Shown here one piece after another: positions 4,297-53,767 of a DNA stretch of 64,000 nt (position 1 is the stretch's first letter; each line of letters begins with the position of its first letter). The notes beneath the pieces were generated by a model. That model did not search any database and had not been told where the DNA came from. It saw nothing but the letters and a program-made list of their open reading frames with translations. Source of the stretch: a virus (taxonomy: Duplodnaviria > Caudoviricetes). The stretch lies in IMG/VR virus record IMGVR_UViG_3300028854_000488. One strand, 5' to 3'. The translations under genes and the position numbers were made by a program.

Positions 4297-4503
4297 TTAA
4301 GCTAATTGTTTAGCCAATTTTTCTAAAATTTCATTCTTACCTTTTTTGAAATTATATTCCAATTTTTTTAACAATAATGTGATATCATCATTAGATAATT
4401 CATCATTGTTTTTTAATTTTTCTACTAATTCATTACCTGAATTTTTAAACCTAAATTCCAATTTCTTCAATAATAATTCGTATTCTTCTGCTGTCAGTTT
4501 CAT
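4297..4503 (-). CDS. Small protein made of two tandem ~30-aa repeats
   Basis: LLLKKLEFRFKNSGNELVEKL / LLLKKLEYNFKKGKNEILEKL. Confidence 0.75.
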   Translation of the reverse strand: MKLTAEEYELLLKKLEFRFKNSGNELVEKLKNNDELSNDDITLLLKKLEYNFKKGKNEILEKLAKQLA

Positions 4504-4549: not shown

Positions 4550-4645
4550 TAAAAAGTTTTTTAATTATCAATAATAATGTAAACATATTTATAGTTTTTT
4601 AACTAAATAGTTTTATATTATATATAATACAAAAATATAAAAAGT

Positions 4646-6349
4646 TTATTTAATATCAATATTATTGTAATATACAAATTTTAGATTACCAGAATCATAT
4701 ATTCTATATATCTTTCTTTCTAACATTATTTCATGCTCTGTTTTATTAATATCAAATCCATCCATAACTAATTTATTTTTTCTGAAGTTAAATTTATTAT
4801 ATCTATTTCTATTTATGACATAAAAATAATTAGGATCAGTTTTTCCTTCATATTTAAATCCTAATTTTTCATATAATTTACCTTGACTAATAGATCTATC
4901 TGAGTACACTGTTATTTTATTAGAATTATAATTTTTAATAAAATAATTAAATAATTGATATTCTCCTTCTATAATATCAGTATTTAATATATTACAAAAC
5001 CTTAATAAATTATATTCTCCTTCATTTATAATATGTCTATTATCAAATGTCATAAGACTTACTAATTTTTTTTCATAAAATAATCCAATTTTAATTTTTG
5101 AACCTATAAATCCTTGAATATTATTATTATTAAGAAATTCTCTAGCTAAATTATTATTATCAATTTTTTTTATTTCACAGTCTATAGCATATATTTTATT
5201 TTTTATTTTTCCTAATTTATTTAATATTATAGATTTTATTATCTCTCTCTTATATAGCCATTCGTCTTCCCATATATGAATTAATTGTATTCCTAATTTT
5301 TCACATTCTTCAGTTTTATTTAAATGATAATTATTATCTTTATTTACTTCATTATGCCAATATATACCATTATATTCAAATGCTAATTTTAAATCTGGTA
5401 AATAAATATCTAATTCTAATGGAGATATTATAGATTTACTATTTAATATTATAGATTTACTATAATTTTCTGATATGAATTCTATAATTTTAGATTCCAT
5501 GAATGAATTAGATGACGGATTACATTTAGGACATAAAATAATATGTTCTAACATTTTATGATTAAACATAGTTTTTGAAATTTTATATGAATGATCACAT
5601 TTATCACATTTAATAATTAAATGATTATCTTCAACTTCAATAATATTTATTTCTTTATATTTATCTTTATATTTTTCAGCGAATTTAGATTTTATTATAT
5701 CACTTTTAAAAGGTGAAATGTTACCATATTTTTCTAAATTTGTGTCTTTTATTTTTTGTTTTATTTTTTCATTTTGAGCTGGATGTTCAAAACCATATTT
5801 TTTTAAATTGGTATTTTTAATTTTATTTTCTATATTTTTATTTTGAGCAGGATATTCTACTCCATATCTTTCTAAATTAGTATTTTTAATTTTATCTCTA
5901 ATTTCTTTATTTTCTAAAGGAATTTCCGTACCATATTTTTCTAAATTTGTTTTTTTTATTTTTTCTTTTACTTCATTATTTAATAATGAAGTTTTATACC
6001 CGTATTTTTTTAAATTAGTTTTTTCTGCTTTTTCTTTTATTTCTTTATTTTTCATAGGATTATCAACTCCAAATAATATATTACTTGTTAGTTTGAATTT
6101 TTCCTTGGAACATTTTTTACAACCATAATAATTATGATTATTGAAATTTTTATAATATTTTTCGATTGAAATATAATTTTCAGAATCACATTTCTCACAA
6201 ATCGCTGTAATTTTAAGTTTTGAATTTTTATTTACATCTTCAATTTTTATATTACAAGTATTACCATTTATAACATTATATCCTAAATTTTTATAATATG
6301 TTATATTTCTACTTGTCATTTGTATATTTAACTCTTTTTCTTTTATCAT
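4646..6349 (-). CDS. Hef-like free-standing homing endonuclease (PD-(D/E)xK/Vsr-like) with TxLxKYG repeats
   Basis: ELDIYLPDLKLAFEYNGIYWH, LIHIWEDEW, Zn-like CxxC pairs, repeated (T/N)LEKYG units. Confidence 0.8.
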   Translation of the reverse strand: MIKEKELNIQMTSRNITYYKNLGYNVINGNTCNIKIEDVNKNSKLKITAICEKCDSENYISIEKYYKNFNNHNYYGCKKCSKEKFKLTSNILFGVDNPMKNKEIKEKAEKTNLKKYGYKTSLLNNEVKEKIKKTNLEKYGTEIPLENKEIRDKIKNTNLERYGVEYPAQNKNIENKIKNTNLKKYGFEHPAQNEKIKQKIKDTNLEKYGNISPFKSDIIKSKFAEKYKDKYKEINIIEVEDNHLIIKCDKCDHSYKISKTMFNHKMLEHIILCPKCNPSSNSFMESKIIEFISENYSKSIILNSKSIISPLELDIYLPDLKLAFEYNGIYWHNEVNKDNNYHLNKTEECEKLGIQLIHIWEDEWLYKREIIKSIILNKLGKIKNKIYAIDCEIKKIDNNNLAREFLNNNNIQGFIGSKIKIGLFYEKKLVSLMTFDNRHIINEGEYNLLRFCNILNTDIIEGEYQLFNYFIKNYNSNKITVYSDRSISQGKLYEKLGFKYEGKTDPNYFYVINRNRYNKFNFRKNKLVMDGFDINKTEHEIMLERKIYRIYDSGNLKFVYYNNIDIK

Positions 6350-30392: not shown

Positions 30393-31160
30393 TTATTTCA
30401 TTTTTTCAAATCTCCATTTAAAATAATAATAATCATTATTTTCTATATGATAAGTATCTTCATTTACTTTTATTATAATATATGGTTTATTATTACTGTT
30501 AATATTATATCCTAAAATTTCAACTACTTTATTTTCATTTATTTCGTATAATTTACCAATATTGTTTTTTAATATAGTTTCATTTTTCATATTTTTATAA
30601 AAACCTTTTTCTGGAATAAACCATTTTTCTAATTTTTTGTAAAAATAATTACTTAATTTTAGTTTATATTCACTATCAATTCTATATAAATATTCTGGCT
30701 CAAAATATACTTCTGATTCAAGAGTTGGTCTTACTATTCCATTGTAATTCCTAAATACACCAAAGTATTCATTTTTGTCAAATTCAAATGATATAAACAC
30801 ATCTAATTTTAAACTAGTGTTCTCGTATATCCTTAAAATTTTAATTTTATCATATAATTCAATATCTTCCAAAAATGGATTACTATCTTTATAAATTAAA
30901 TCATTTTGACCACGTAATCCTTTTATAACTCTATCTAAGTTAGATACTAATCCAGATTGCCTTGCATAAAAATCAGTATAGGGACTGTCCTGATAATTAT
31001 AATATGATGCACTTGGGTCCTGAGCGAAAGCAAATTGACCACCTCCGCCAGCAGTTCCCATTGGTTCTATACCAAACTGAAATTGCTGGAACTCAGAGTC
31101 CTCTGTTATTAGGTTTACTTCATTTAAAAATGAATATCTACTATATTTAAATATTTTCAT
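30393..31160 (-). CDS. Hypothetical protein
   Basis: 255-aa ORF; N-terminus ...SFLNE. Confidence 0.75.
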   Translation of the reverse strand: MKIFKYSRYSFLNEVNLITEDSEFQQFQFGIEPMGTAGGGGQFAFAQDPSASYYNYQDSPYTDFYARQSGLVSNLDRVIKGLRGQNDLIYKDSNPFLEDIELYDKIKILRIYENTSLKLDVFISFEFDKNEYFGVFRNYNGIVRPTLESEVYFEPEYLYRIDSEYKLKLSNYFYKKLEKWFIPEKGFYKNMKNETILKNNIGKLYEINENKVVEILGYNINSNNKPYIIIKVNEDTYHIENNDYYYFKWRFEKMK

Positions 31161-31742: not shown

Positions 31743-33701
31743 ATGAAATTTAAAAATATTCAAAGTCGTAAAGATTTTATAAAAATGAATGAAATATTTG
31801 GAGGAACTCAAGGAGGAGTTGGATCTAGAGATGGATTTGCTAATAATGCTGATTTGAAAGATACTTATTTAGGAAAATTAATGAATGGATTATTCAAAGG
31901 TTTAAGTTGGTTATGGAGAAAAAGTAAAGAAAATTTCATTATTAATAGATTAATTGCAAAATTAATTAATGAATTAATACGTGGTGTTATTGTATATTGT
32001 TTTATAAAGAAAATAGATTTACAATCAGGTAAGATTTCAGAAGAAGAAAATCAAGAAAATAAAGAATCAAATGAAAATGAAAATGAAGTTTCTTTTGAAT
32101 CTATTAAAAAAGATATAGGGGAAGATTTATTTAATAAAATGATGAATGGTTCAGAAGGAGAGGATGTTGAAGAATTGATAAAAAAATCAGGAATAAAAAC
32201 AGATAATGATATACCAATAATAAAAAGTATTAACGATGTAAAAGAAGTTATTGACAAGGAAGAATATGATAAAATGAAAACTGAAACATATGAGTTTTTG
32301 AAAAAAAATATTCAATTTTTTGATGATATTAAGAAAAGTGCAGATGAAGGTGATGAAGAATCAAAAAAGAAGCTTGATATGATAAAGGCAATTTATGTTA
32401 ATTATGAAATAGTTAAAAAATTAAAAGAAAAAGAAACTAAAAATGAAAAAGCACCAGATGAAGCATCAGTAACAAATGAAGCATTAGCTAAACTTAGAAC
32501 AGATTCTAGTGCTGGTAAAATAGGAATAGATTCAAATAAACCAACGATTAGTCCAGCGGCTAATCCGAAATCAATAATTAAAAGTTTTGTTAGTGTAAAA
32601 AGTATTATAACTAAAAGAGATCAAGATAAATATAAAGAACGTGAAGCTGATTTTTCTTTGCCAATATCTTCTATAAATTTAGCAGAAATAGAAAAAACAA
32701 TTGCTAGAAATGATGCTGCAATGAAGGAAGTATCATCAAATGTAAATTCTGAAAGTTTAAAAGTAATTCAACTTACAGCAAAAGATTTATTTGTTACAAA
32801 AGAACAAAATGTTGAAACAGAAAAATTGAAATTGAGATGGGATAAAGAATTATCTAAAGTTTATGCAAGTTTTTCATTATTAATGGATATACCGAGTGTT
32901 GATATTAGAGAAGGTTCATATGGCTCAGGATTAAATTTATCTGGAACTACAATAAAAGCAAATAAAGAAATAAAAAAGTTTGAAAATGATTCTGAATCAT
33001 TGAAAATTGGAGATAATTTAGGAGATTCATTAAATCAATCTGAAACTAAGATAGGAGGATTAGAAGGCAATTGGCAATATTGTATATTTGAGTATCAAGG
33101 AATTAATTATAATGCTACAATAGCTCCGATTAGTTCTGCTCCTTCAAATGGATTCTATATGTTTATGATTACTCAAACAATAAAGAAAATAGAAAATAAT
33201 ATTGTCACTTCAAATTTTAAAGAATTTGAAAAATTATTTTCATCCACTAATTTTGCAAATGTTAATTTAAAAAAAGATGATGTAATTAATATATATTTTA
33301 TGTTAAAGAAAGGAGCAAGTTTACCATCAGGAACAAGTGCTAATACTAATGGGCAAAGTAATAGTTTTTTGGTTTTTAATAATTATATTAGTTCTGACAA
33401 CCAAACAAACAAATTGTTTTTATGTGAGCCATCAGGTGAAAAATTTATAGCTGATTTGGAATTAAGTAATCCTAGTAATACTTTTGATGGTGTAATAGCC
33501 AGCAATTATCAAAAAGATAAAATTAATATTAAGAGTTGCCGTAAATTTGATAGAGTTAAATTTTGGTGGAAAGCATTAAATTTTATAACTGATTCTAATG
33601 ATAAGAAATTCTGTGCTTTTAAAGATGAAGAAAGTTCACCTAAATTTTGGGATAATAAAGTAGTATTAGATAATTTGAAAAAAATTGCATCTAAATTTTA
33701 A
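31743..33701 (+). CDS. Large hypothetical protein, possibly virion-internal
   Basis: 652-aa ORF; N-terminus ...DFIKMNE. Confidence 0.7.
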   Translation: MKFKNIQSRKDFIKMNEIFGGTQGGVGSRDGFANNADLKDTYLGKLMNGLFKGLSWLWRKSKENFIINRLIAKLINELIRGVIVYCFIKKIDLQSGKISEEENQENKESNENENEVSFESIKKDIGEDLFNKMMNGSEGEDVEELIKKSGIKTDNDIPIIKSINDVKEVIDKEEYDKMKTETYEFLKKNIQFFDDIKKSADEGDEESKKKLDMIKAIYVNYEIVKKLKEKETKNEKAPDEASVTNEALAKLRTDSSAGKIGIDSNKPTISPAANPKSIIKSFVSVKSIITKRDQDKYKEREADFSLPISSINLAEIEKTIARNDAAMKEVSSNVNSESLKVIQLTAKDLFVTKEQNVETEKLKLRWDKELSKVYASFSLLMDIPSVDIREGSYGSGLNLSGTTIKANKEIKKFENDSESLKIGDNLGDSLNQSETKIGGLEGNWQYCIFEYQGINYNATIAPISSAPSNGFYMFMITQTIKKIENNIVTSNFKEFEKLFSSTNFANVNLKKDDVINIYFMLKKGASLPSGTSANTNGQSNSFLVFNNYISSDNQTNKLFLCEPSGEKFIADLELSNPSNTFDGVIASNYQKDKINIKSCRKFDRVKFWWKALNFITDSNDKKFCAFKDEESSPKFWDNKVVLDNLKKIASKF

Positions 33702-43879: not shown

Positions 43880-43959
43880 AACCTACGATGGGATTCAAAC
43901 CCACATTTACAACTTCAATTACAGTTACTTGATTCGTAGTCAAGACTGGTTACATAGGC
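43880..43959 (-). tRNA. Atypical tRNA-Arg(ACG)-like RNA lacking a D arm, with a long variable arm
   Basis: Acceptor GCCTATG/CGTAGGT; anticodon arm CTTGA-CTACGAA-TCAAG; T arm GTGGG-TTTGAAT-CCCAT; only 8 nt between acceptor and anticodon stems. Confidence 0.6.
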
Positions 43960-45747: not shown

Positions 45748-45802
45748 ACTACTTTTTATCTTTATATATAAAAAATGTATAATAAATTATTTGTAAAATT
45801 AG

Positions 45803-45885
45803 TGGACTGAGAGGGATTCGAACCCACAAGCTCCGAAGAGAACGCATTTACAGTGCGGCGAGCCAACCAACTGCTCAATCAATCC
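45803..45885 (-). tRNA. tRNA-Tyr(GTA)
   Basis: Anticodon loop CTGTAAA, long variable arm, GGTTCGAATCC. Confidence 0.9.
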
Positions 45886-45890
45886 ATTTG

Positions 45891-45963
45891 TACTCCCAGT
45901 AGGCATTGAACCTACATGACGTGCTTATAAGGCGCGCATACTTACCAATTATATGATAGGAGC
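45891..45963 (-). tRNA. tRNA-Ile(TAT)
   Basis: Anticodon loop CTTATAA; GTAGG-TTCAATG-CCTAC T arm. Confidence 0.85.
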
Positions 45964-45972
45964 ATTATTTAG

Positions 45973-46046
45973 TAGTCTCGGTGAGACTTGAACTCACGAT
46001 TTATTGCTTATCAGGCAATTGCTCTAACCAACTGAACTACAAGACT
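45973..46046 (-). tRNA. tRNA-Ile(GAT)
   Basis: Canonical cloverleaf, loop CTGATAA. Confidence 0.92.
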
Positions 46047-46113
46047 ATATAAGTTTATTTTTATTAATCATAACATACTATTAGTATGATAATAGTCACA
46101 ATTATAAACTATG

Positions 46114-46183
46114 TACCGAATATGATGTTCGAAATCATTTGGATTTCCTTATGAGAGAAATCTCTTTTCCACTAAGCTTCGGC
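46114..46183 (-). tRNA. Degenerate tRNA with CAT anticodon (Met or Ile2)
   Basis: Loop CTCATAA, T arm ATGAT-TTCGAAC-ATCAT; weak D arm. Confidence 0.6.
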
Positions 46184-46196
46184 ATTATGTTTATTG

Positions 46197-46270
46197 AGGC
46201 CAAGGTGGGACTCGAACCCACACAATATAGTTTTGCAGACTATCCCCTTATTCCATTCGGGCACTCGGTC
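46197..46270 (-). tRNA. tRNA-Cys(GCA)
   Basis: Loop CTGCAAA, U73 discriminator. Confidence 0.9.
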
Positions 46271-46278
46271 ATTTTTTG

Positions 46279-46350
46279 CGGGAGTGAGGAATCACGATAT
46301 CCTAACCTACTGGTTAACAGCCAGTTGCTCTGCCTTTGAGCTACATTCCC
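46279..46350 (-). tRNA. tRNA-Asn(GTT) with non-canonical T loop
   Basis: Loop CTGTTAA, G73; T loop ATCGTGA. Confidence 0.8.
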
Positions 46351-46361
46351 ATATATTTTTG

Positions 46362-46436
46362 CTGGAATAGTTGGATTCGAACCAATAACCCTCACTTTAA
46401 CAAAGTGCCGCTCTAACCGTTAAGAGCTACATTCCA
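46362..46436 (-). tRNA. tRNA-Asn(GTT)
   Basis: Loop TTGTTAA, G73, canonical T loop. Confidence 0.88.
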
Positions 46437-46444
46437 ATAATAAG

Positions 46445-46519
46445 CGGACTATAACGGTTACGGTCCGTTAATTTTACTTGAGTGACGGTCAAGTTCTCCA
46501 CCAAGGAGCCTAATAATCC
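46445..46519 (-). tRNA. tRNA-Asp(GTC) with non-canonical T loop
   Basis: CTTGA-CCGTCAC-TCAAG; T arm AACGG-ACCGTAA-CCGTT; G73. Confidence 0.75.
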
Positions 46520-46525
46520 ATTTTT

Positions 46526-46600
46526 TGGTACTGATTAAGAGAGTTGAACTCTTCTTGGCAGGTTGAAAACCTGTAGTCCTAACCGATAGACGAAACCAGC
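46526..46600 (-). tRNA. tRNA-Glu(TTC) with encoded CCA
   Basis: Loop TTTTCAA; ends ...AATCAGT-A-CCA. Confidence 0.9.
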
Positions 46601-46614
46601 ATTAATTTATTTTG

Positions 46615-46760
46615 TGAGATGGAGGGGATTCGAACCAATTGTAATAACTTCTGTGCTTTTCATGTACACTTATTACACATATCTTAATACGTTTATTTAC
46701 CTCATTCCTTAGACACCTGGGTCCATCCCAGGCTGGCTTCACCACAACCATAGCCACCTC
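46615..46760 (-). ncRNA. 146-nt tRNA-like RNA of unknown type
   Basis: Closed 7-bp acceptor-like stem GAGGTGG/CCATCTC + A; GGTTCGAATCC; extra internal hairpins. Confidence 0.55.
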
Positions 46761-46785: not shown

Positions 46786-46797
46786 TTTCAAAGAGCA
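46786..46797 (-). promoter_or_regulatory. boxA-like antitermination element TGCTCTTTGAAA
   Basis: Resembles the rrn boxA consensus; lies between the attenuator and the first RNA gene. Confidence 0.55.
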
Positions 46798-46800
46798 TTT

Positions 46801-46845
46801 AAAAACAAAAAACTCAGTTCTTATTTTTAAGAACTGAGTTTTTTT
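46801..46845 (-). terminator. Attenuator terminator upstream of the main tRNA array
   Basis: Minus strand: AAAAAACTCAGTTCTTA-AAAA-TAAGAACTGAGTTTTTT-GTTTTT. Confidence 0.85.
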
Positions 46846-46871: not shown

Positions 46872-47003
46872 TTATCCAGTTCTTCGTACAATATTTTCAT
46901 CATCATTAATATAATCATTATTCATATTAATACATATCTCTTCCATATTGTAATTAATGTTACAATTGCGATAAATGCGATATATGTTATTCATGTTATT
47001 CAT
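46872..47003 (-). CDS. 43-aa attenuator leader peptide (not in the ORF track)
   Basis: MNNMNNIYRIYRNCNINYNMEEICINMNNDYINDDENIVRRTG*; its 3' end is complementary to the terminator 5' arm. Confidence 0.85.
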   Translation of the reverse strand: MNNMNNIYRIYRNCNINYNMEEICINMNNDYINDDENIVRRTG

Positions 47004-49346: not shown

Positions 49347-49868
49347 TTAGTGTTGACTAACTGTTATATTCTTTAAATTATTAAATAATCCATCGTGTTC
49401 AAGTGCGCTATAATAGTTTCCGTCATTATCTGAATAGCTGAAGCAATACATTACTGATCCAGTTACTTCTTTTCCATCAATTATTTGAAGTTTTAACTTT
49501 CTTATATTAAAGAAATCTTTAAGTATTTTTGCTGAATATTTATTTGTAGCATTGTTATATGCTGTCCATCTATCAGATGAATCCTCTATATATTTAAAAT
49601 CATCATATTCAGGCGCTCCATCTCCATAATATCCGCTACTTAAAATTTCAATAGCTTTTTCAGTATTATTTTTAGTTTGATCACATATGTCAGACCATAC
49701 AGTCATTGCAACTTGTTCAACTGAATAAGTATTATCAAAATCATAATATGATTGATTTTTAGTGAATAACATATTTTTTACATCATTTACACATTTAGGT
49801 TCCATTGGAAAAATAACGATAAAACTACTTGATGATGAGTTACTAACAAAACCATTTCTTATTTTCAT
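49347..49868 (-). CDS. MKIRxGFVSNSSSSSF-family protein
   Basis: N-terminus MKIRNGFVSNSSSSSFIV. Confidence 0.85.
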   Translation of the reverse strand: MKIRNGFVSNSSSSSFIVIFPMEPKCVNDVKNMLFTKNQSYYDFDNTYSVEQVAMTVWSDICDQTKNNTEKAIEILSSGYYGDGAPEYDDFKYIEDSSDRWTAYNNATNKYSAKILKDFFNIRKLKLQIIDGKEVTGSVMYCFSYSDNDGNYYSALEHDGLFNNLKNITVSQH

Positions 49869-50031
49869 ATTATTTTATTTTTATCTTTTTTATTAGTTAA
49901 ATCTATTTTGATGTCTGGTTTTTTGAAAATTGCTTCAAAAATTCCTACAATAAAACTTCCTATAATAGAAATTATTAAAAAACATCCAATAAATGTCCAA
50001 AAATCTGAAGTTACATATTTTAAAATTTCTA

Positions 50032-50670
50032 TCATATATTTTTATTTATTTCGTCTAATTTATCTTTTCTTTTATATATTGGATTACACACTAAACATAT
50101 AAGTCCATGTTTTTTTGTGTTCCACATATCATAATAATCGCCATTTTTCTTACATTTTGGACAATATGTTGAACTTTCTTTACCAACTATTTTAAAATCT
50201 AAAGAATAATAATCATTATCAAAAGCATCAAAATCATTTTCATATTTAGTTAAATATTCTATAGTATTCCAGTCATCACTATTAACTTTATAATTTTGTT
50301 GTATTATTCTTAATTCTGATATCGCATCATCTGATAATTTTGTATTATATTCATACAACTCCCAATCTTCGTTATTGCATGTAGAAACTAAATAGCGATC
50401 AGCTACTTTTTTTATATATGTATCATAGTTACAACTTTGAAAGGTTATAGCTTGATTTTCATCTATATTTTTTAATATATTAATATATGAATTATATTCA
50501 GTTATACTATATGCATCATATTCTTTATTTTTCATATCATTATCAATATATTGTTCATATTTTACATTAATCATATATGTAGCAAGATCACGTACACTCT
50601 TAAAACTTTTATCAGAAATTATAAAACTACTAGATGACGAATTACTTACAAATCCACTTCTTATTTTCAT
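50032..50670 (-). CDS. MKIRxGFVSNSSSSSF-family protein with C-terminal Zn ribbon
   Basis: MKIRSGFVSNSSSSSFII; CPKC...CLVC; RKDKL. Confidence 0.85.
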   Translation of the reverse strand: MKIRSGFVSNSSSSSFIISDKSFKSVRDLATYMINVKYEQYIDNDMKNKEYDAYSITEYNSYINILKNIDENQAITFQSCNYDTYIKKVADRYLVSTCNNEDWELYEYNTKLSDDAISELRIIQQNYKVNSDDWNTIEYLTKYENDFDAFDNDYYSLDFKIVGKESSTYCPKCKKNGDYYDMWNTKKHGLICLVCNPIYKRKDKLDEINKNI

Positions 50671-50684
50671 TTTTATTATTTATA

Positions 50685-50987
50685 TTAACAATATCTAGTT
50701 CCAGTTATTAATTCAACTTCACTGATATCAACATTTAATGTTTCAGATACCAATTTAGATTTTTCTATTATATCATCTATTGATGTTATACTACTATATA
50801 ATTCTTCTCCATTTGAAATTATATAACCAATAATATAATTATAGTTAGTCATATCCACATAAAGTGTTTCTATTCCATTATCAAACCCTTGTTCAATTTC
50901 TTCTTCTGTACAATCTAATCTTTTGACTCCAATTATTACAAAACTACTTGAACTTGAATTACTTACAAATCCTGTTCTTATTTTCAT
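50685..50987 (-). CDS. MKIRxGFVSNSSSSSF-family protein
   Basis: MKIRTGFVSNSSSSSFVI. Confidence 0.85.
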   Translation of the reverse strand: MKIRTGFVSNSSSSSFVIIGVKRLDCTEEEIEQGFDNGIETLYVDMTNYNYIIGYIISNGEELYSSITSIDDIIEKSKLVSETLNVDISEVELITGTRYC

Positions 50988-51007
50988 TTTTTATTTATCT
51001 TTTATTT

Positions 51008-52042
51008 TTATAATAAATGTGGTTTTGCTTCAGCAATTCCAGCATTTGTTACTTGAACCCATTTTGGATTATATTCAGATAGATTGTTAGCTCCACCATA
51101 AGATAATGCTGAACGAACTCCATCTATTAATCCTTCTATTACAAATTTGACACCACCTTTAAATGGTATTGTTGTTGACTCACCTTCCACGTTTCTTTCT
51201 GCTTGATTGTGAACAGTTTTTGTTTCTAATGAAGCAGAGCCTCTATAACGTTTATATAAGCCATTAGAACTCTCTATAATCTTTCCTGGTGACTCTTCTG
51301 TTCCAGCTAATAGAGAACCTAACATAACACTAGATGATCCTAATGCAAGAGCCTTAGAAATATCACCGCTATTTCTAATTCCTCCATCTGCCATAACAGG
51401 AACTTTAGCAACAGATATAATATCAATTAAACTTGTTACACTTGGTATTCCAAATCCTGTTTTTAACCTTGTTGTACATAACGCCCCATTTCCAATTCCG
51501 CATCTTAATCCATCAGCACCCCAATTCTGTAAATCAATTGCTGCTTCTGCTGTTGCAATGTTACCTGCAATTACATCAATATTTAAATTTAAGCCTTTAA
51601 TTGCTTCAATTGCTTTTTTGACATTTATATGATGTCCATGAGCAACATCAATAAGAATGACATTTACTCCAGATTTAATTAATTCTTTTGCTCTTTCTAA
51701 AAAATCTCCAGTTGATCCTACTGCAGCCATTATTGGAATTTTACGTCCAATAAAAGGATTATGAGAACTATTATTAATATAATTAGTTAATTTTTTAATT
51801 TCAACAATTTGATCTTCTATAGTCATAAATCTATGAATACATCCAATGCCTCCTAATTGAAACATTTTACATGCCATTTCATATTCACAAACTGTATCCA
51901 TTGGTGATGCAACTAATGGTATAATTAATTCATAATTTTTTGATAACTTTGTTATTAAACTAATTTCACTTCTATGTTCTACTTCAGAATATGATGGTAT
52001 GTTTTGAATATCGTCATATGTTAATGCTATATTATTTATCAT
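51008..52042 (-). CDS. IMPDH/GMP reductase family protein without CBS domains (GMP reductase favoured)
   Basis: ASPMDTV, IDVAHGH, AGNIAT, GIGNGALCTTR, ADGGI, YRGSAS, VEG. Confidence 0.85.
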   Translation of the reverse strand: MINNIALTYDDIQNIPSYSEVEHRSEISLITKLSKNYELIIPLVASPMDTVCEYEMACKMFQLGGIGCIHRFMTIEDQIVEIKKLTNYINNSSHNPFIGRKIPIMAAVGSTGDFLERAKELIKSGVNVILIDVAHGHHINVKKAIEAIKGLNLNIDVIAGNIATAEAAIDLQNWGADGLRCGIGNGALCTTRLKTGFGIPSVTSLIDIISVAKVPVMADGGIRNSGDISKALALGSSSVMLGSLLAGTEESPGKIIESSNGLYKRYRGSASLETKTVHNQAERNVEGESTTIPFKGGVKFVIEGLIDGVRSALSYGGANNLSEYNPKWVQVTNAGIAEAKPHLL

Positions 52043-52087
52043 TTTTTATTTTATATTTTATATTATTTAATTTTTATTTAATTTTCA

Positions 52088-52531
52088 TTAAAATGATATT
52101 AATTTTAAATATCTACTATCAAAATTAATACTATTATTTATATGAGATCGTAATATTGGATGCAATTTAAAACTTAAATCTGAATCAGATATTATATCAA
52201 TATTTCCAATATATTTTTCGAAATTTTTAATTACATTTTTAGTATTATTAATATTAGAATTTAATATAAAATTAATAATATTTAATAATTCAAAATCTTG
52301 CTTATTAATTTTCCATATTTCACAATATTTAGACCAAAAATTCATATCATAATCTATCTCTTGTTTCTTATAATTATTTTCAATATCACATATAAAAATA
52401 TTTTTACCTAATTTATTAAAAAAAGTCATTGATTTTTCTATTAAATAATCAGGTGATGTATATATGATTTTATTATCATTTAACATAATACCAAGGTAAT
52501 AAAATATATTATGAATTTGATTTTTTGTCAT
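52088..52531 (-). CDS. Hypothetical protein
   Basis: 147-aa ORF. Confidence 0.7.
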   Translation of the reverse strand: MTKNQIHNIFYYLGIMLNDNKIIYTSPDYLIEKSMTFFNKLGKNIFICDIENNYKKQEIDYDMNFWSKYCEIWKINKQDFELLNIINFILNSNINNTKNVIKNFEKYIGNIDIISDSDLSFKLHPILRSHINNSINFDSRYLKLISF

Positions 52532-52556
52532 AATTTTTTTAATTATAAATAATTAT

Positions 52557-52949
52557 TTAATAATTGTCATTACTTACCATTTGAATATACGTGCAAATTA
52601 CTCCTGAAATTCCATATTTTTCAAATTTTTGACGTAATGCATCATCTTCTTCTGGTGTACGATCTTTAAATTCTGTTACTTCACCATCTTCTAATCCACC
52701 GAGTGAATCACCTACAATAAGAGTATTATAATCTTTTTCTCCAAAATAATTACCATTTACTTCAATTCTGAAATCATCATCAATTTTATTTGATATAAAT
52801 TCATATTTATCATATTCATCTTCAATATTATCAAATTCTTCAATAGGAATATTTAATACTTTAACTAATTCTTCTACTGTAATTTTAATTCCTCTTATCA
52901 CAAAAGATGAACTACTTGAATTACTTACAAAACCATTTCTTATTTTCAT
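52557..52949 (-). CDS. MKIRxGFVSNSSSSSF-family protein
   Basis: MKIRNGFVSNSSSSSFVI. Confidence 0.85.
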   Translation of the reverse strand: MKIRNGFVSNSSSSSFVIRGIKITVEELVKVLNIPIEEFDNIEDEYDKYEFISNKIDDDFRIEVNGNYFGEKDYNTLIVGDSLGGLEDGEVTEFKDRTPEEDDALRQKFEKYGISGVICTYIQMVSNDNY

Positions 52950-52968
52950 TTAATTTTTTTTTTTAATT

Positions 52969-53412
52969 TTAATAACTTCCTCCACTTTGAATACGAATGT
53001 TATCATTATCAACATTTATTCCTTTATCACATAGATAAGATTCTAGTCCATCACCAGAATCATCAGATGCTGAACATTCATAATAACGATATTCTTTATT
53101 CTTTATTTTTTCTAACTCTTCTCTTGAAATATCAGGACAACTATCATTTATAATTATATTTATCATATCTTCTTCTGATAAATTTTTATCTTCTGAATAA
53201 CAATAATTATTAAATATATCTTTAATAGTCATTTCTTTTAGATTTTCTAACATCCAATTAGATAATTCAGAAGCAAATCCACATAGAATAGAGTTTTCTT
53301 TTAAATCAAATAATTTCATAAGCATATTATTTGATATTTTTTGATCATTTTTAATAAGAACTATAAAAGAACTACTACTACTGTTGCTTACAAATCCATT
53401 TCGTATTTTCAT
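52969..53412 (-). CDS. MKIRxGFVSNSSSSSF-family protein
   Basis: MKIRNGFVSNSSSSSFIV. Confidence 0.85.
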   Translation of the reverse strand: MKIRNGFVSNSSSSSFIVLIKNDQKISNNMLMKLFDLKENSILCGFASELSNWMLENLKEMTIKDIFNNYCYSEDKNLSEEDMINIIINDSCPDISREELEKIKNKEYRYYECSASDDSGDGLESYLCDKGINVDNDNIRIQSGGSY

Positions 53413-53413
53413 A

Positions 53414-53767
53414 TTATTTATTATTTAAAATTTCATTAATTTTATTTTTATTTGCAATAATAATTTTGCCTTCATCTGGTCCACCTTCAACTTCTGCAAT
53501 TACATATGGCTTAACTAATTTATCTAAATGATCAGGAAAATCGAAATCTTCAAATTCATCTGTATTACAATACTCATATATGGAATCATACCATAATTCT
53601 TCATTGTCGATGAGCATTTTTAATAAGTCTTTAAATCCATCTAATGGAAAATCTTCATATTTATTAGTAATCTTATCATAATCAATAACATCAAGAAAAT
53701 TCTCAGGTAACAGAATTACAAAAGACGAACTACTTGAGTTGCTCACAAATCCACTTCTTATTTTCAT
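53414..53767 (-). CDS. MKIRxGFVSNSSSSSF-family protein
   Basis: MKIRSGFVSNSSSSSFVI. Confidence 0.85.
   Translation of the reverse strand: MKIRSGFVSNSSSSSFVILLPENFLDVIDYDKITNKYEDFPLDGFKDLLKMLIDNEELWYDSIYEYCNTDEFEDFDFPDHLDKLVKPYVIAEVEGGPDEGKIIIANKNKINEILNNK

Follow-up and report, generated by a model that had tools for sequence, protein, structure and literature searches.

Oversized RNAs with tRNA-type ends are an old, known kind of gene product in phage tRNA clusters. Phage T4 encodes species 1 RNA (rnaC, 139 nt) and species 2 RNA (rnaD, 119 nt; NC_000866.4, 70908–71171), which are expressed late and have no known function (PMC9697503, PMC3014915). Phage T5 encodes RNA1 (144 nt, 30501–30644) and RNA2 (125 nt, 32959–33083; AY543070.1), which are annotated as “tRNA-like stable RNA with unknown functions”. 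Two further groups are of relevance, namely the oversized tRNAs of Lak megaphages, which become tRNAs on removal of an insert, splicing not being shown in that report (bioRxiv 10.1101/356790), and the irregular polycistronic tRNAs or allo-tRNAs, which also occur in peat and of which some do not serve in translation (PMC5389517). In the following we compare these systems with a 146-nt element found in a 64,000-nt stretch of viral DNA (IMGVR_UViG_3300028854_000488), referred to as the window. Like the phage tRNA-like stable RNAs, the element lies in a tRNA cluster, falls into the size range of 100–175 nt, has tRNA-type ends and offers no usable anticodon. The initial annotation, which regarded it as a tRNA mimic, had overlooked this kind of RNA.

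The source of the element is a giant peat-soil phage (megaphage). The window is phage-like and has a GC content of 23%. The HNH-like protein adjoining the tRNA array is encoded on peat-metagenome contigs reaching 346,561 bases, and the downstream membrane protein has a homolog, from a relative, on a 711-kb contig. The array occupies the minus strand from 47954 to 45802. Between its two leading Met tRNAs (47954–47802) and the element (46760 to 46615, minus strand) there is a 43-codon leader ORF (46872–47003, minus strand; conserved in the related records L018, L019 and L050), which is rich in N, M, I, Y, R, C, E and D, corresponds in these codons to the amino acids served by the array, and is a probable attenuator. 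It is followed by a 17-bp hairpin resembling an intrinsic terminator (46807–46844), also present in relatives, and by a boxA-like antitermination motif (46786–46797, minus strand) recognized by its sequence and conserved in L018 and L050. The role of this motif is presumed by us from boxA of E. coli. The element is the first gene after these signals, and tRNA-Glu starts 14 bases 3' of it, opening a run of Glu, Asp-like, Asn, Asn, Cys, Met-like, Ile, Ile and Tyr genes (45802–46600, minus strand). The earlier placement at the head of the array thus applies to the attenuated sub-array, and not to the array as a whole, given the two Met tRNAs upstream.

Units of leader ORF and terminator precede tRNA groups twice in the window (47003–46807 and 48608–48353, both minus strand), and the same design is seen in L073, L074, L078, L101 and LR745206.1. 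An HNH-like endonuclease gene is located within the array (47725–47036, minus strand), with homologs also among the tRNA genes of 636–735-kb phages. Further away, six paralogous small ORFs sharing the start motif MKIR.GFVSNSSSSSF surround an IMP dehydrogenase gene (49347–53767, minus strand). In L076 the segment at about 1570–1770, between Met tRNAs and a leader, has no Rfam match at E ≤ 0.05; it resembles the GTPase centre of 23S rRNA, the domain that binds L11, interrupted by a large insertion.

The element (46615–46760) has a GC content of 42% in comparison to 23% in the window. Its position n corresponds to window coordinate 46761 − n. The 7-bp acceptor stem joins positions 1–7 (46754–46760) to 139–145 by six Watson-Crick pairs and G4·U69, and is followed by a discriminator A at 46615; its third pair is G3:C70, so that G3:U70 is absent, as had been stated before. 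Three linker bases lead to a D-arm-like hairpin of 5 bp (11–27, 46734–46750) with GG at 18–19. The hairpin at the anticodon position (29–45, 46716–46732; the CCTGGG/CCCAGG hairpin of the initial annotation) has 6 bp and a 5-nt loop, and is predicted with a pair probability of 0.99. If this loop is read as 7 nt, it contains TGG together with A33, a G32–C38 pair and A37. The variable-loop-like linker (46707–46715) ends in AGG, the three 5' bases by which the T stem falls short of 5 bp. After an insert of 70 nt (46637–46706) the 3' part (46615–46636) comprises a 2-bp T stem, a canonical T loop (127–133), three bases without adjacent partners, the acceptor 3' strand and the discriminator. CCA is not encoded. 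The T loop is therefore closed by 2 bp only, in agreement with the earlier description, and the other three partners of the T stem lie 70 nt upstream.

The acceptor, D and anticodon-position helices are intact in 18 of 18 pairs. Positions 1–54 correspond to the 5' two-thirds of a tRNA and 125–146 to the T loop and acceptor strand; this frame has 58% GC, compared to 26% in the insert. The gene ends follow the convention of the array, with a T before the first base and the discriminator, C and a run of A after the last. The T-loop motif occurs four times in the window, always inside this array; in 20 shuffled windows a T loop together with its closing stem did not occur. The 14 bases around the T loop recur unchanged in an Asn tRNA of the same array. 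The element has more tRNA anatomy than was seen initially: the proposed GGCT/AGCC hairpin would use acceptor bases G6–G7 and has a pair probability of 0.0, the compatible helix being the D arm, while the minus strand and a hairpin at 69–84 are additions of the present analysis.

The insert contains this 6-bp hairpin (46692–46677; pair probability 0.8) and a long bulged stem-loop, already recognized as a stem with a capped inner stem (85–120, 46676–46641, 0.94; inner stem 92–108, 0.69). The tRNA-like helices themselves carry less weight in the secondary-structure model, with 0.47 for the acceptor stem in the absence of tertiary contacts, 0.22 for the D arm and 0.03 for the T hairpin. Neither the folding energy of the whole element (z −1.2 to −1.5) nor the folding signal of the insert (z −0.2 to −1.4) departs significantly from shuffled sequences. 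Pairing of AGG (52–54) with 136–138 is nearly free in the unspliced RNA (−33.5 versus −33.9 kcal/mol). The insert could form a junction inside the T stem, to which the model gives little weight without tertiary contacts. Several other arrangements were considered and rejected: a fold using 32–39 as acceptor 5' strand is about 6 kcal/mol, and an inner 89-nt gene starting at position 58 about 8 kcal/mol, worse than the tRNA-like fold; the Phe-like 7-nt loop at 98–104 is no convincing anticodon, its stem having an A·C mismatch and no T stem following; and derivation of the insert from the leader, or pairing with it, received p values of 0.1–0.4.

Rfam and ARAGORN searches, proposed initially as a check, did not call the element, and no known family was matched. 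With the canonical tRNA model (RF00005) there is no match at the gathering score or at E ≤ 10. The 7-bp acceptor stem, discriminator, D-loop GG and T loop of this family are present, and the contiguous 5-bp T stem and the 7-nt anticodon loop with U33 are missing. If positions 55–124 are removed and 54 is joined to 125, which was the best in silico junction, a perfect 5-bp T stem is restored and ARAGORN calls Pro(TGG) with a score of 102.5. As 100 junctions had been tried, the same full procedure was rerun on 150 shuffled interiors with the ends kept. None of these reached 102.5, three reached 100, and the median was 76.7. The hidden cloverleaf is therefore real at roughly the 1–2% level. A33, the G32–C38 pair, A37 and G1:C72 violate the rules of decoding and of proline identity, and because of the first three the recovered cloverleaf should not decode. 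The element is a genuine gene, presumably derived from a tRNA, and its insert is at an unusual position.

The comparison with T5 brings out both likeness and difference. Like the element, RNA1 and RNA2 frame additional sequence with an acceptor stem, a D arm and a T loop, and possess no usable anticodon. The D arm of RNA2 is found in the same place, is alike in 15 of 18 positions by eye, and is kept in phage My1. In contrast, the T stem of both T5 RNAs is complete with 5 bp and their additional domain is attached at the anticodon arm, whereas in the element a closed hairpin at the anticodon position precedes the insert, which interrupts the T stem. A second T loop is present in RNA2, and only one in the element (copies from T5, My1, Acj9 and S113 compared). 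Interior similarity amounts to p = 0.73 for RNA1 and p = 0.03 for RNA2, the latter being one of about 25 comparisons. T4 rnaC is similar in size and location in a tRNA cluster, and has a long hairpin directly before the T loop; it differs in its 5-bp T stem and one long 5' arm (interior similarity p = 0.73). Two hairpin loops of rnaC (L053, 1409–1547, minus strand) are complementary over six bases and could kiss. Homology to rnaD was rejected: this RNA has no T loop, and p ranged from 0.005 to 0.78 over three variants, in a variable arm lacking partners in the element. By interior homology the element is not a sequence member of the T4 rnaC, rnaD or T5 RNA1 families, nor does it belong to RNA2, with its second T-loop module and full T stem.

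Lak tRNAs, compared by their description, were assigned to Phe, Gly, Thr and Tyr with insert-free alleles for one; the product of the element, in contrast, is non-canonical, and no such allele was found. With allo-tRNAs the element shares the long D stem, a 6-bp stem at the anticodon position, a long extra arm and the peat habitat. It fails the allo-tRNA test, since it has a 7/2 branch and A73 in place of an 8/4 or 9/3 branch and G73 or U73, and it differs further by the 5-nt loop, the 70-nt insert and its phage origin. The last 21 bases match tmRNA 3' ends (RF00023) and attachment-site copies in bacterial genomes. However, the element is less than half as long as tmRNA, does not show G3·U70, a helix joining the halves, a tag frame or pseudoknots, and is not called tmRNA by ARAGORN or Rfam. 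It likewise lacks the class II D arm and GUC loop of the giant-arm GUC type, both of which are present in L130 (LR756504.1; interior similarity p = 0.85), and has no match to Y RNA/YrlA (RF02553) at E ≤ 10.

All contigs of this phage carry the element without any difference, and 145 of its 146 positions are identical in a second strain type (L050/L052), in which all downstream tRNAs are different. The sole site at which variation was seen is 46686, located in the loop of hairpin 69–84. The same single change was seen in one bog run and one soil run, and one permafrost run covers the 5' half of the element unchanged. No RNA run was among the carriers listed, which bears neither way on whether a stable processed RNA accumulates. 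The adjacent leader and spacer show two substitutions and four indels in about 300 positions. A single substitution in a loop cannot probe the structure, and the conservation of leader and spacer comes close to that of the element, so that selection on it is no more than a possibility. In syntenic relatives the slot at the head of the array holds a Tyr tRNA (L018), degenerate Tyr-type genes (L019, L078, LR745206.1), an unrelated structured sequence of 90 nt (L074), other content before Glu (L073, L101) or, in some of the closest relatives, nothing. The L074 sequence (about 4297–4380) is closed by a 7-bp stem, has no T loop and no Rfam match.

Homologs were not found by BLAST in phages and plasmids, nor by walks along neighbouring genes (HNH, IMPDH, 134-aa, 207-aa and leader proteins). 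IMG/VR searches with patterns of the hairpin, both ends, the D arm and the 3' end returned chance matches and one tRNA-His with a similar acceptor stem, and the 3'-end pattern in GTDB only tmRNA ends and attachment sites. These pattern searches yielded no uninterrupted parent tRNA or insert-free allele. A two-sequence covariance model, run over ten phage records and the loci collected for comparison, found ordinary tRNAs only, and these weakly; with no positive control for distant homologs, this blank counts for little. Literature searches gave no description of this element.

We tentatively favor, with a confidence a little short of even, that the element is a non-decoding tRNA-shaped RNA of the kind of T4 rnaC and T5 RNA1/RNA2, co-induced with the tRNAs. 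Its position directly after the leader terminator, the array-type gene ends, the GC-rich frame in an AT-rich genome, a hidden cloverleaf exceeding all 150 shuffled interiors, and retention in two strain types, even where the tRNAs downstream were all exchanged, speak for this reading. Against it are the want of homologs beyond these strain types, the varying slot content, a divergence not clearly below that of leader and spacer, and the background GC content of the insert. The 18 intact helix pairs together with a loop departing from tRNA rules at three places fit selection on shape and not on decoding.

Classical attenuators provide the model for read-through by leader stalling. Ribosomes stalled on the leader would allow read-through of the terminator, so that the element would be transcribed with the tRNAs. 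It may have arisen from a tRNA gene that acquired the insert. Its release would resemble that of its neighbors, with cleavage by host RNase P, trimming at the 3' end and addition of CCA. Non-tRNA and phage-induced substrates of RNase P are known (PMC4919922). A tRNA elbow might be built from the D-loop GG and the T loop, and owing to its closed loop and interrupted T stem the RNA would be kept off EF-Tu and the ribosome. For its function, the most likely, if in itself improbable, proposal is that it may compete under translation stress for host proteins reading the top half of tRNA, e.g. tRNA-cutting or tRNA-modifying defence enzymes. Such competition would best fit the timing because tRNAs are commonly targeted by anti-phage systems (PMC11464382, PMC12409363, PMC12445682). 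As the counter-defence in these publications consists of supplied uncleavable working tRNAs, and not of decoys, the decoy step is speculation. Of the initial interpretation as a co-induced mimic, the non-decoding tRNA shape and co-transcription agree with anatomy and position, and the role as an enzyme ligand is conjectural; a decoy for anticodon nucleases in particular is weakened by the loop, which is closed to 5 nt and matches no amino acid served by the array.

A doubtful, though serious, alternative is a pseudogene: a 70-nt AT-rich insertion would have disrupted a tRNA gene, or recombination at the shared T-loop sequence would have produced a chimera, and the gene may be transcribed and processed and yet be inert. 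The composition of the insert, which equals the background and folds no better than shuffles, would be expected from such an event, as would a T stem broken exactly at the insert end, the 14 bases shared with the Asn tRNA, and a narrowly distributed gene in a slot that turns over, not demonstrably better conserved than the spacer beside it. Points against a decaying gene are the frame helices, which are all intact and GC-rich next to a loop that is non-canonical at three sites, the failure of the pattern searches to yield an uninterrupted parent tRNA, and persistence where neighboring tRNAs were replaced. A more specific form of the non-decoding reading we prefer is a stress-gated RNA, which would be released first on failing tRNA supply and in which the 70-nt domain, as a junction in the T stem, would act as a sponge for a host defence enzyme targeting tRNA; we consider it distinctly improbable.

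It is very unlikely that the element is an aminoacylated carrier or scaffold outside the ribosome, charged by a host synthetase at its acceptor end (A73, G1:C72) and binding a partner protein by its insert. The acceptor stem is intact with an A discriminator, and irregular tRNAs that are charged and untranslated occur in forest and peat soil polycistrons (PMC5389517). Nevertheless a clear identity set is missing: Ala is opposed by the lack of G3·U70, Tyr and Asp by the lack of a matching anticodon, and Leu by the lack of a class II D arm, and no constant partner gene adjoins the element. Pro is likewise opposed by G1:C72 in place of C1:G72.

We give still less credit to a tRNA-Pro(UGG)-like gene with a small spliced intron at 51/52, comparable to the “enigmatic introns” of Lak phages. 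The restored T stem with its ARAGORN score would be in line with splicing, inserts in megaphage tRNAs have been called introns before (bioRxiv 10.1101/356790), and relatives hold other insert-bearing tRNAs. But on inspection there is no bulge-helix-bulge, no terminal G or exon U as in group I and no group II ends, Rfam reports no intron, and the spliced product would still be without U33 and G37. Pro is also absent from the leader codons, no insert-free allele was found, and the score stems from 100 junctions, with three of the 150 shuffles reaching 100. A small protein gene is hardly credible: a 49-codon frame from position 10 through the element end is open in both strain types with purine-rich bases just before its ATG, but the distance between the two is 3 nt, the acceptor and D stems bury the start, the frame is skipped by gene callers, several percent of frames would be open over this length by chance, and coding does not explain the T loop and closing stem.

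Apart from the element, several unusual tRNA-like genes were noted in the window. ARAGORN and Rfam both fail to report an Asp(GTC)-like cloverleaf at 46519–46445 (minus strand). Position 33 of this gene is C, its anticodon stem has 6 bp, its D arm is of the tetraloop type, and its T loop lacks TTC; it is near-identical in L019, and a covarying version is present in L073 (5307–5382). A weak Met/CAU-type tRNA of 22.5 bits with several strain differences is located at 46183–46114 (minus strand), and a D-armless Arg(ACG)-like gene with a long variable region at 43959–43880 (minus strand) and also in L019 (10458).

Similar observations were made in related records. An Ile(GAT)-like cloverleaf of 125 nt, with about 50 nt in the D loop and C33, occurs in L019 (9108–9233), L018 (17644–17769) and L103 (2670–2795). 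D-armless Ile-/Tyr-type genes with an extended anticodon helix (L018, 17460–17632; L019, 8893–9066; L073, 5200–5295; L074, about 4615–4710) carry a D-loop-like motif on the 3' side of the anticodon arm, which gives the impression of a relocated D arm. L125 contains on its minus strand near 999 (LR756501.1, about 228975–229025) a mini-tRNA of about 45 nt without anticodon arm, consisting of a 7-bp acceptor stem, a short GG-containing linker and a full T arm. A match of 16 of 20 bases between it and positions 49–68 of the element, found by model search and then re-scored, was dismissed as being at about chance level for the number of bases searched.

At least ten different oversized tRNA-shaped genes of 100–170 nt, including the giant-arm GUC type, are present in large phages, among them L123, L124, L126 (LR756501.1), L130 (LR756504.1), L054 (19811–19934; LR745206.1), L040 (4577) and L090 (2988). 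None of the oversized or rebuilt genes of related megaphages has significant interior similarity to the element. Such genes are undercounted in megaphages by tRNA finders. As an orphan from an uncultured phage the element is a poorer handle than T4 or T5, where deletion is possible. Its placement behind a probable translation-sensing attenuator predicts when it would be produced, and ties this class of RNA to stress in tRNA supply. If the sponge reading were true, it would represent a new topology of tRNA mimic and would suggest a testable role for the unexplained stable RNAs of T4 and T5.
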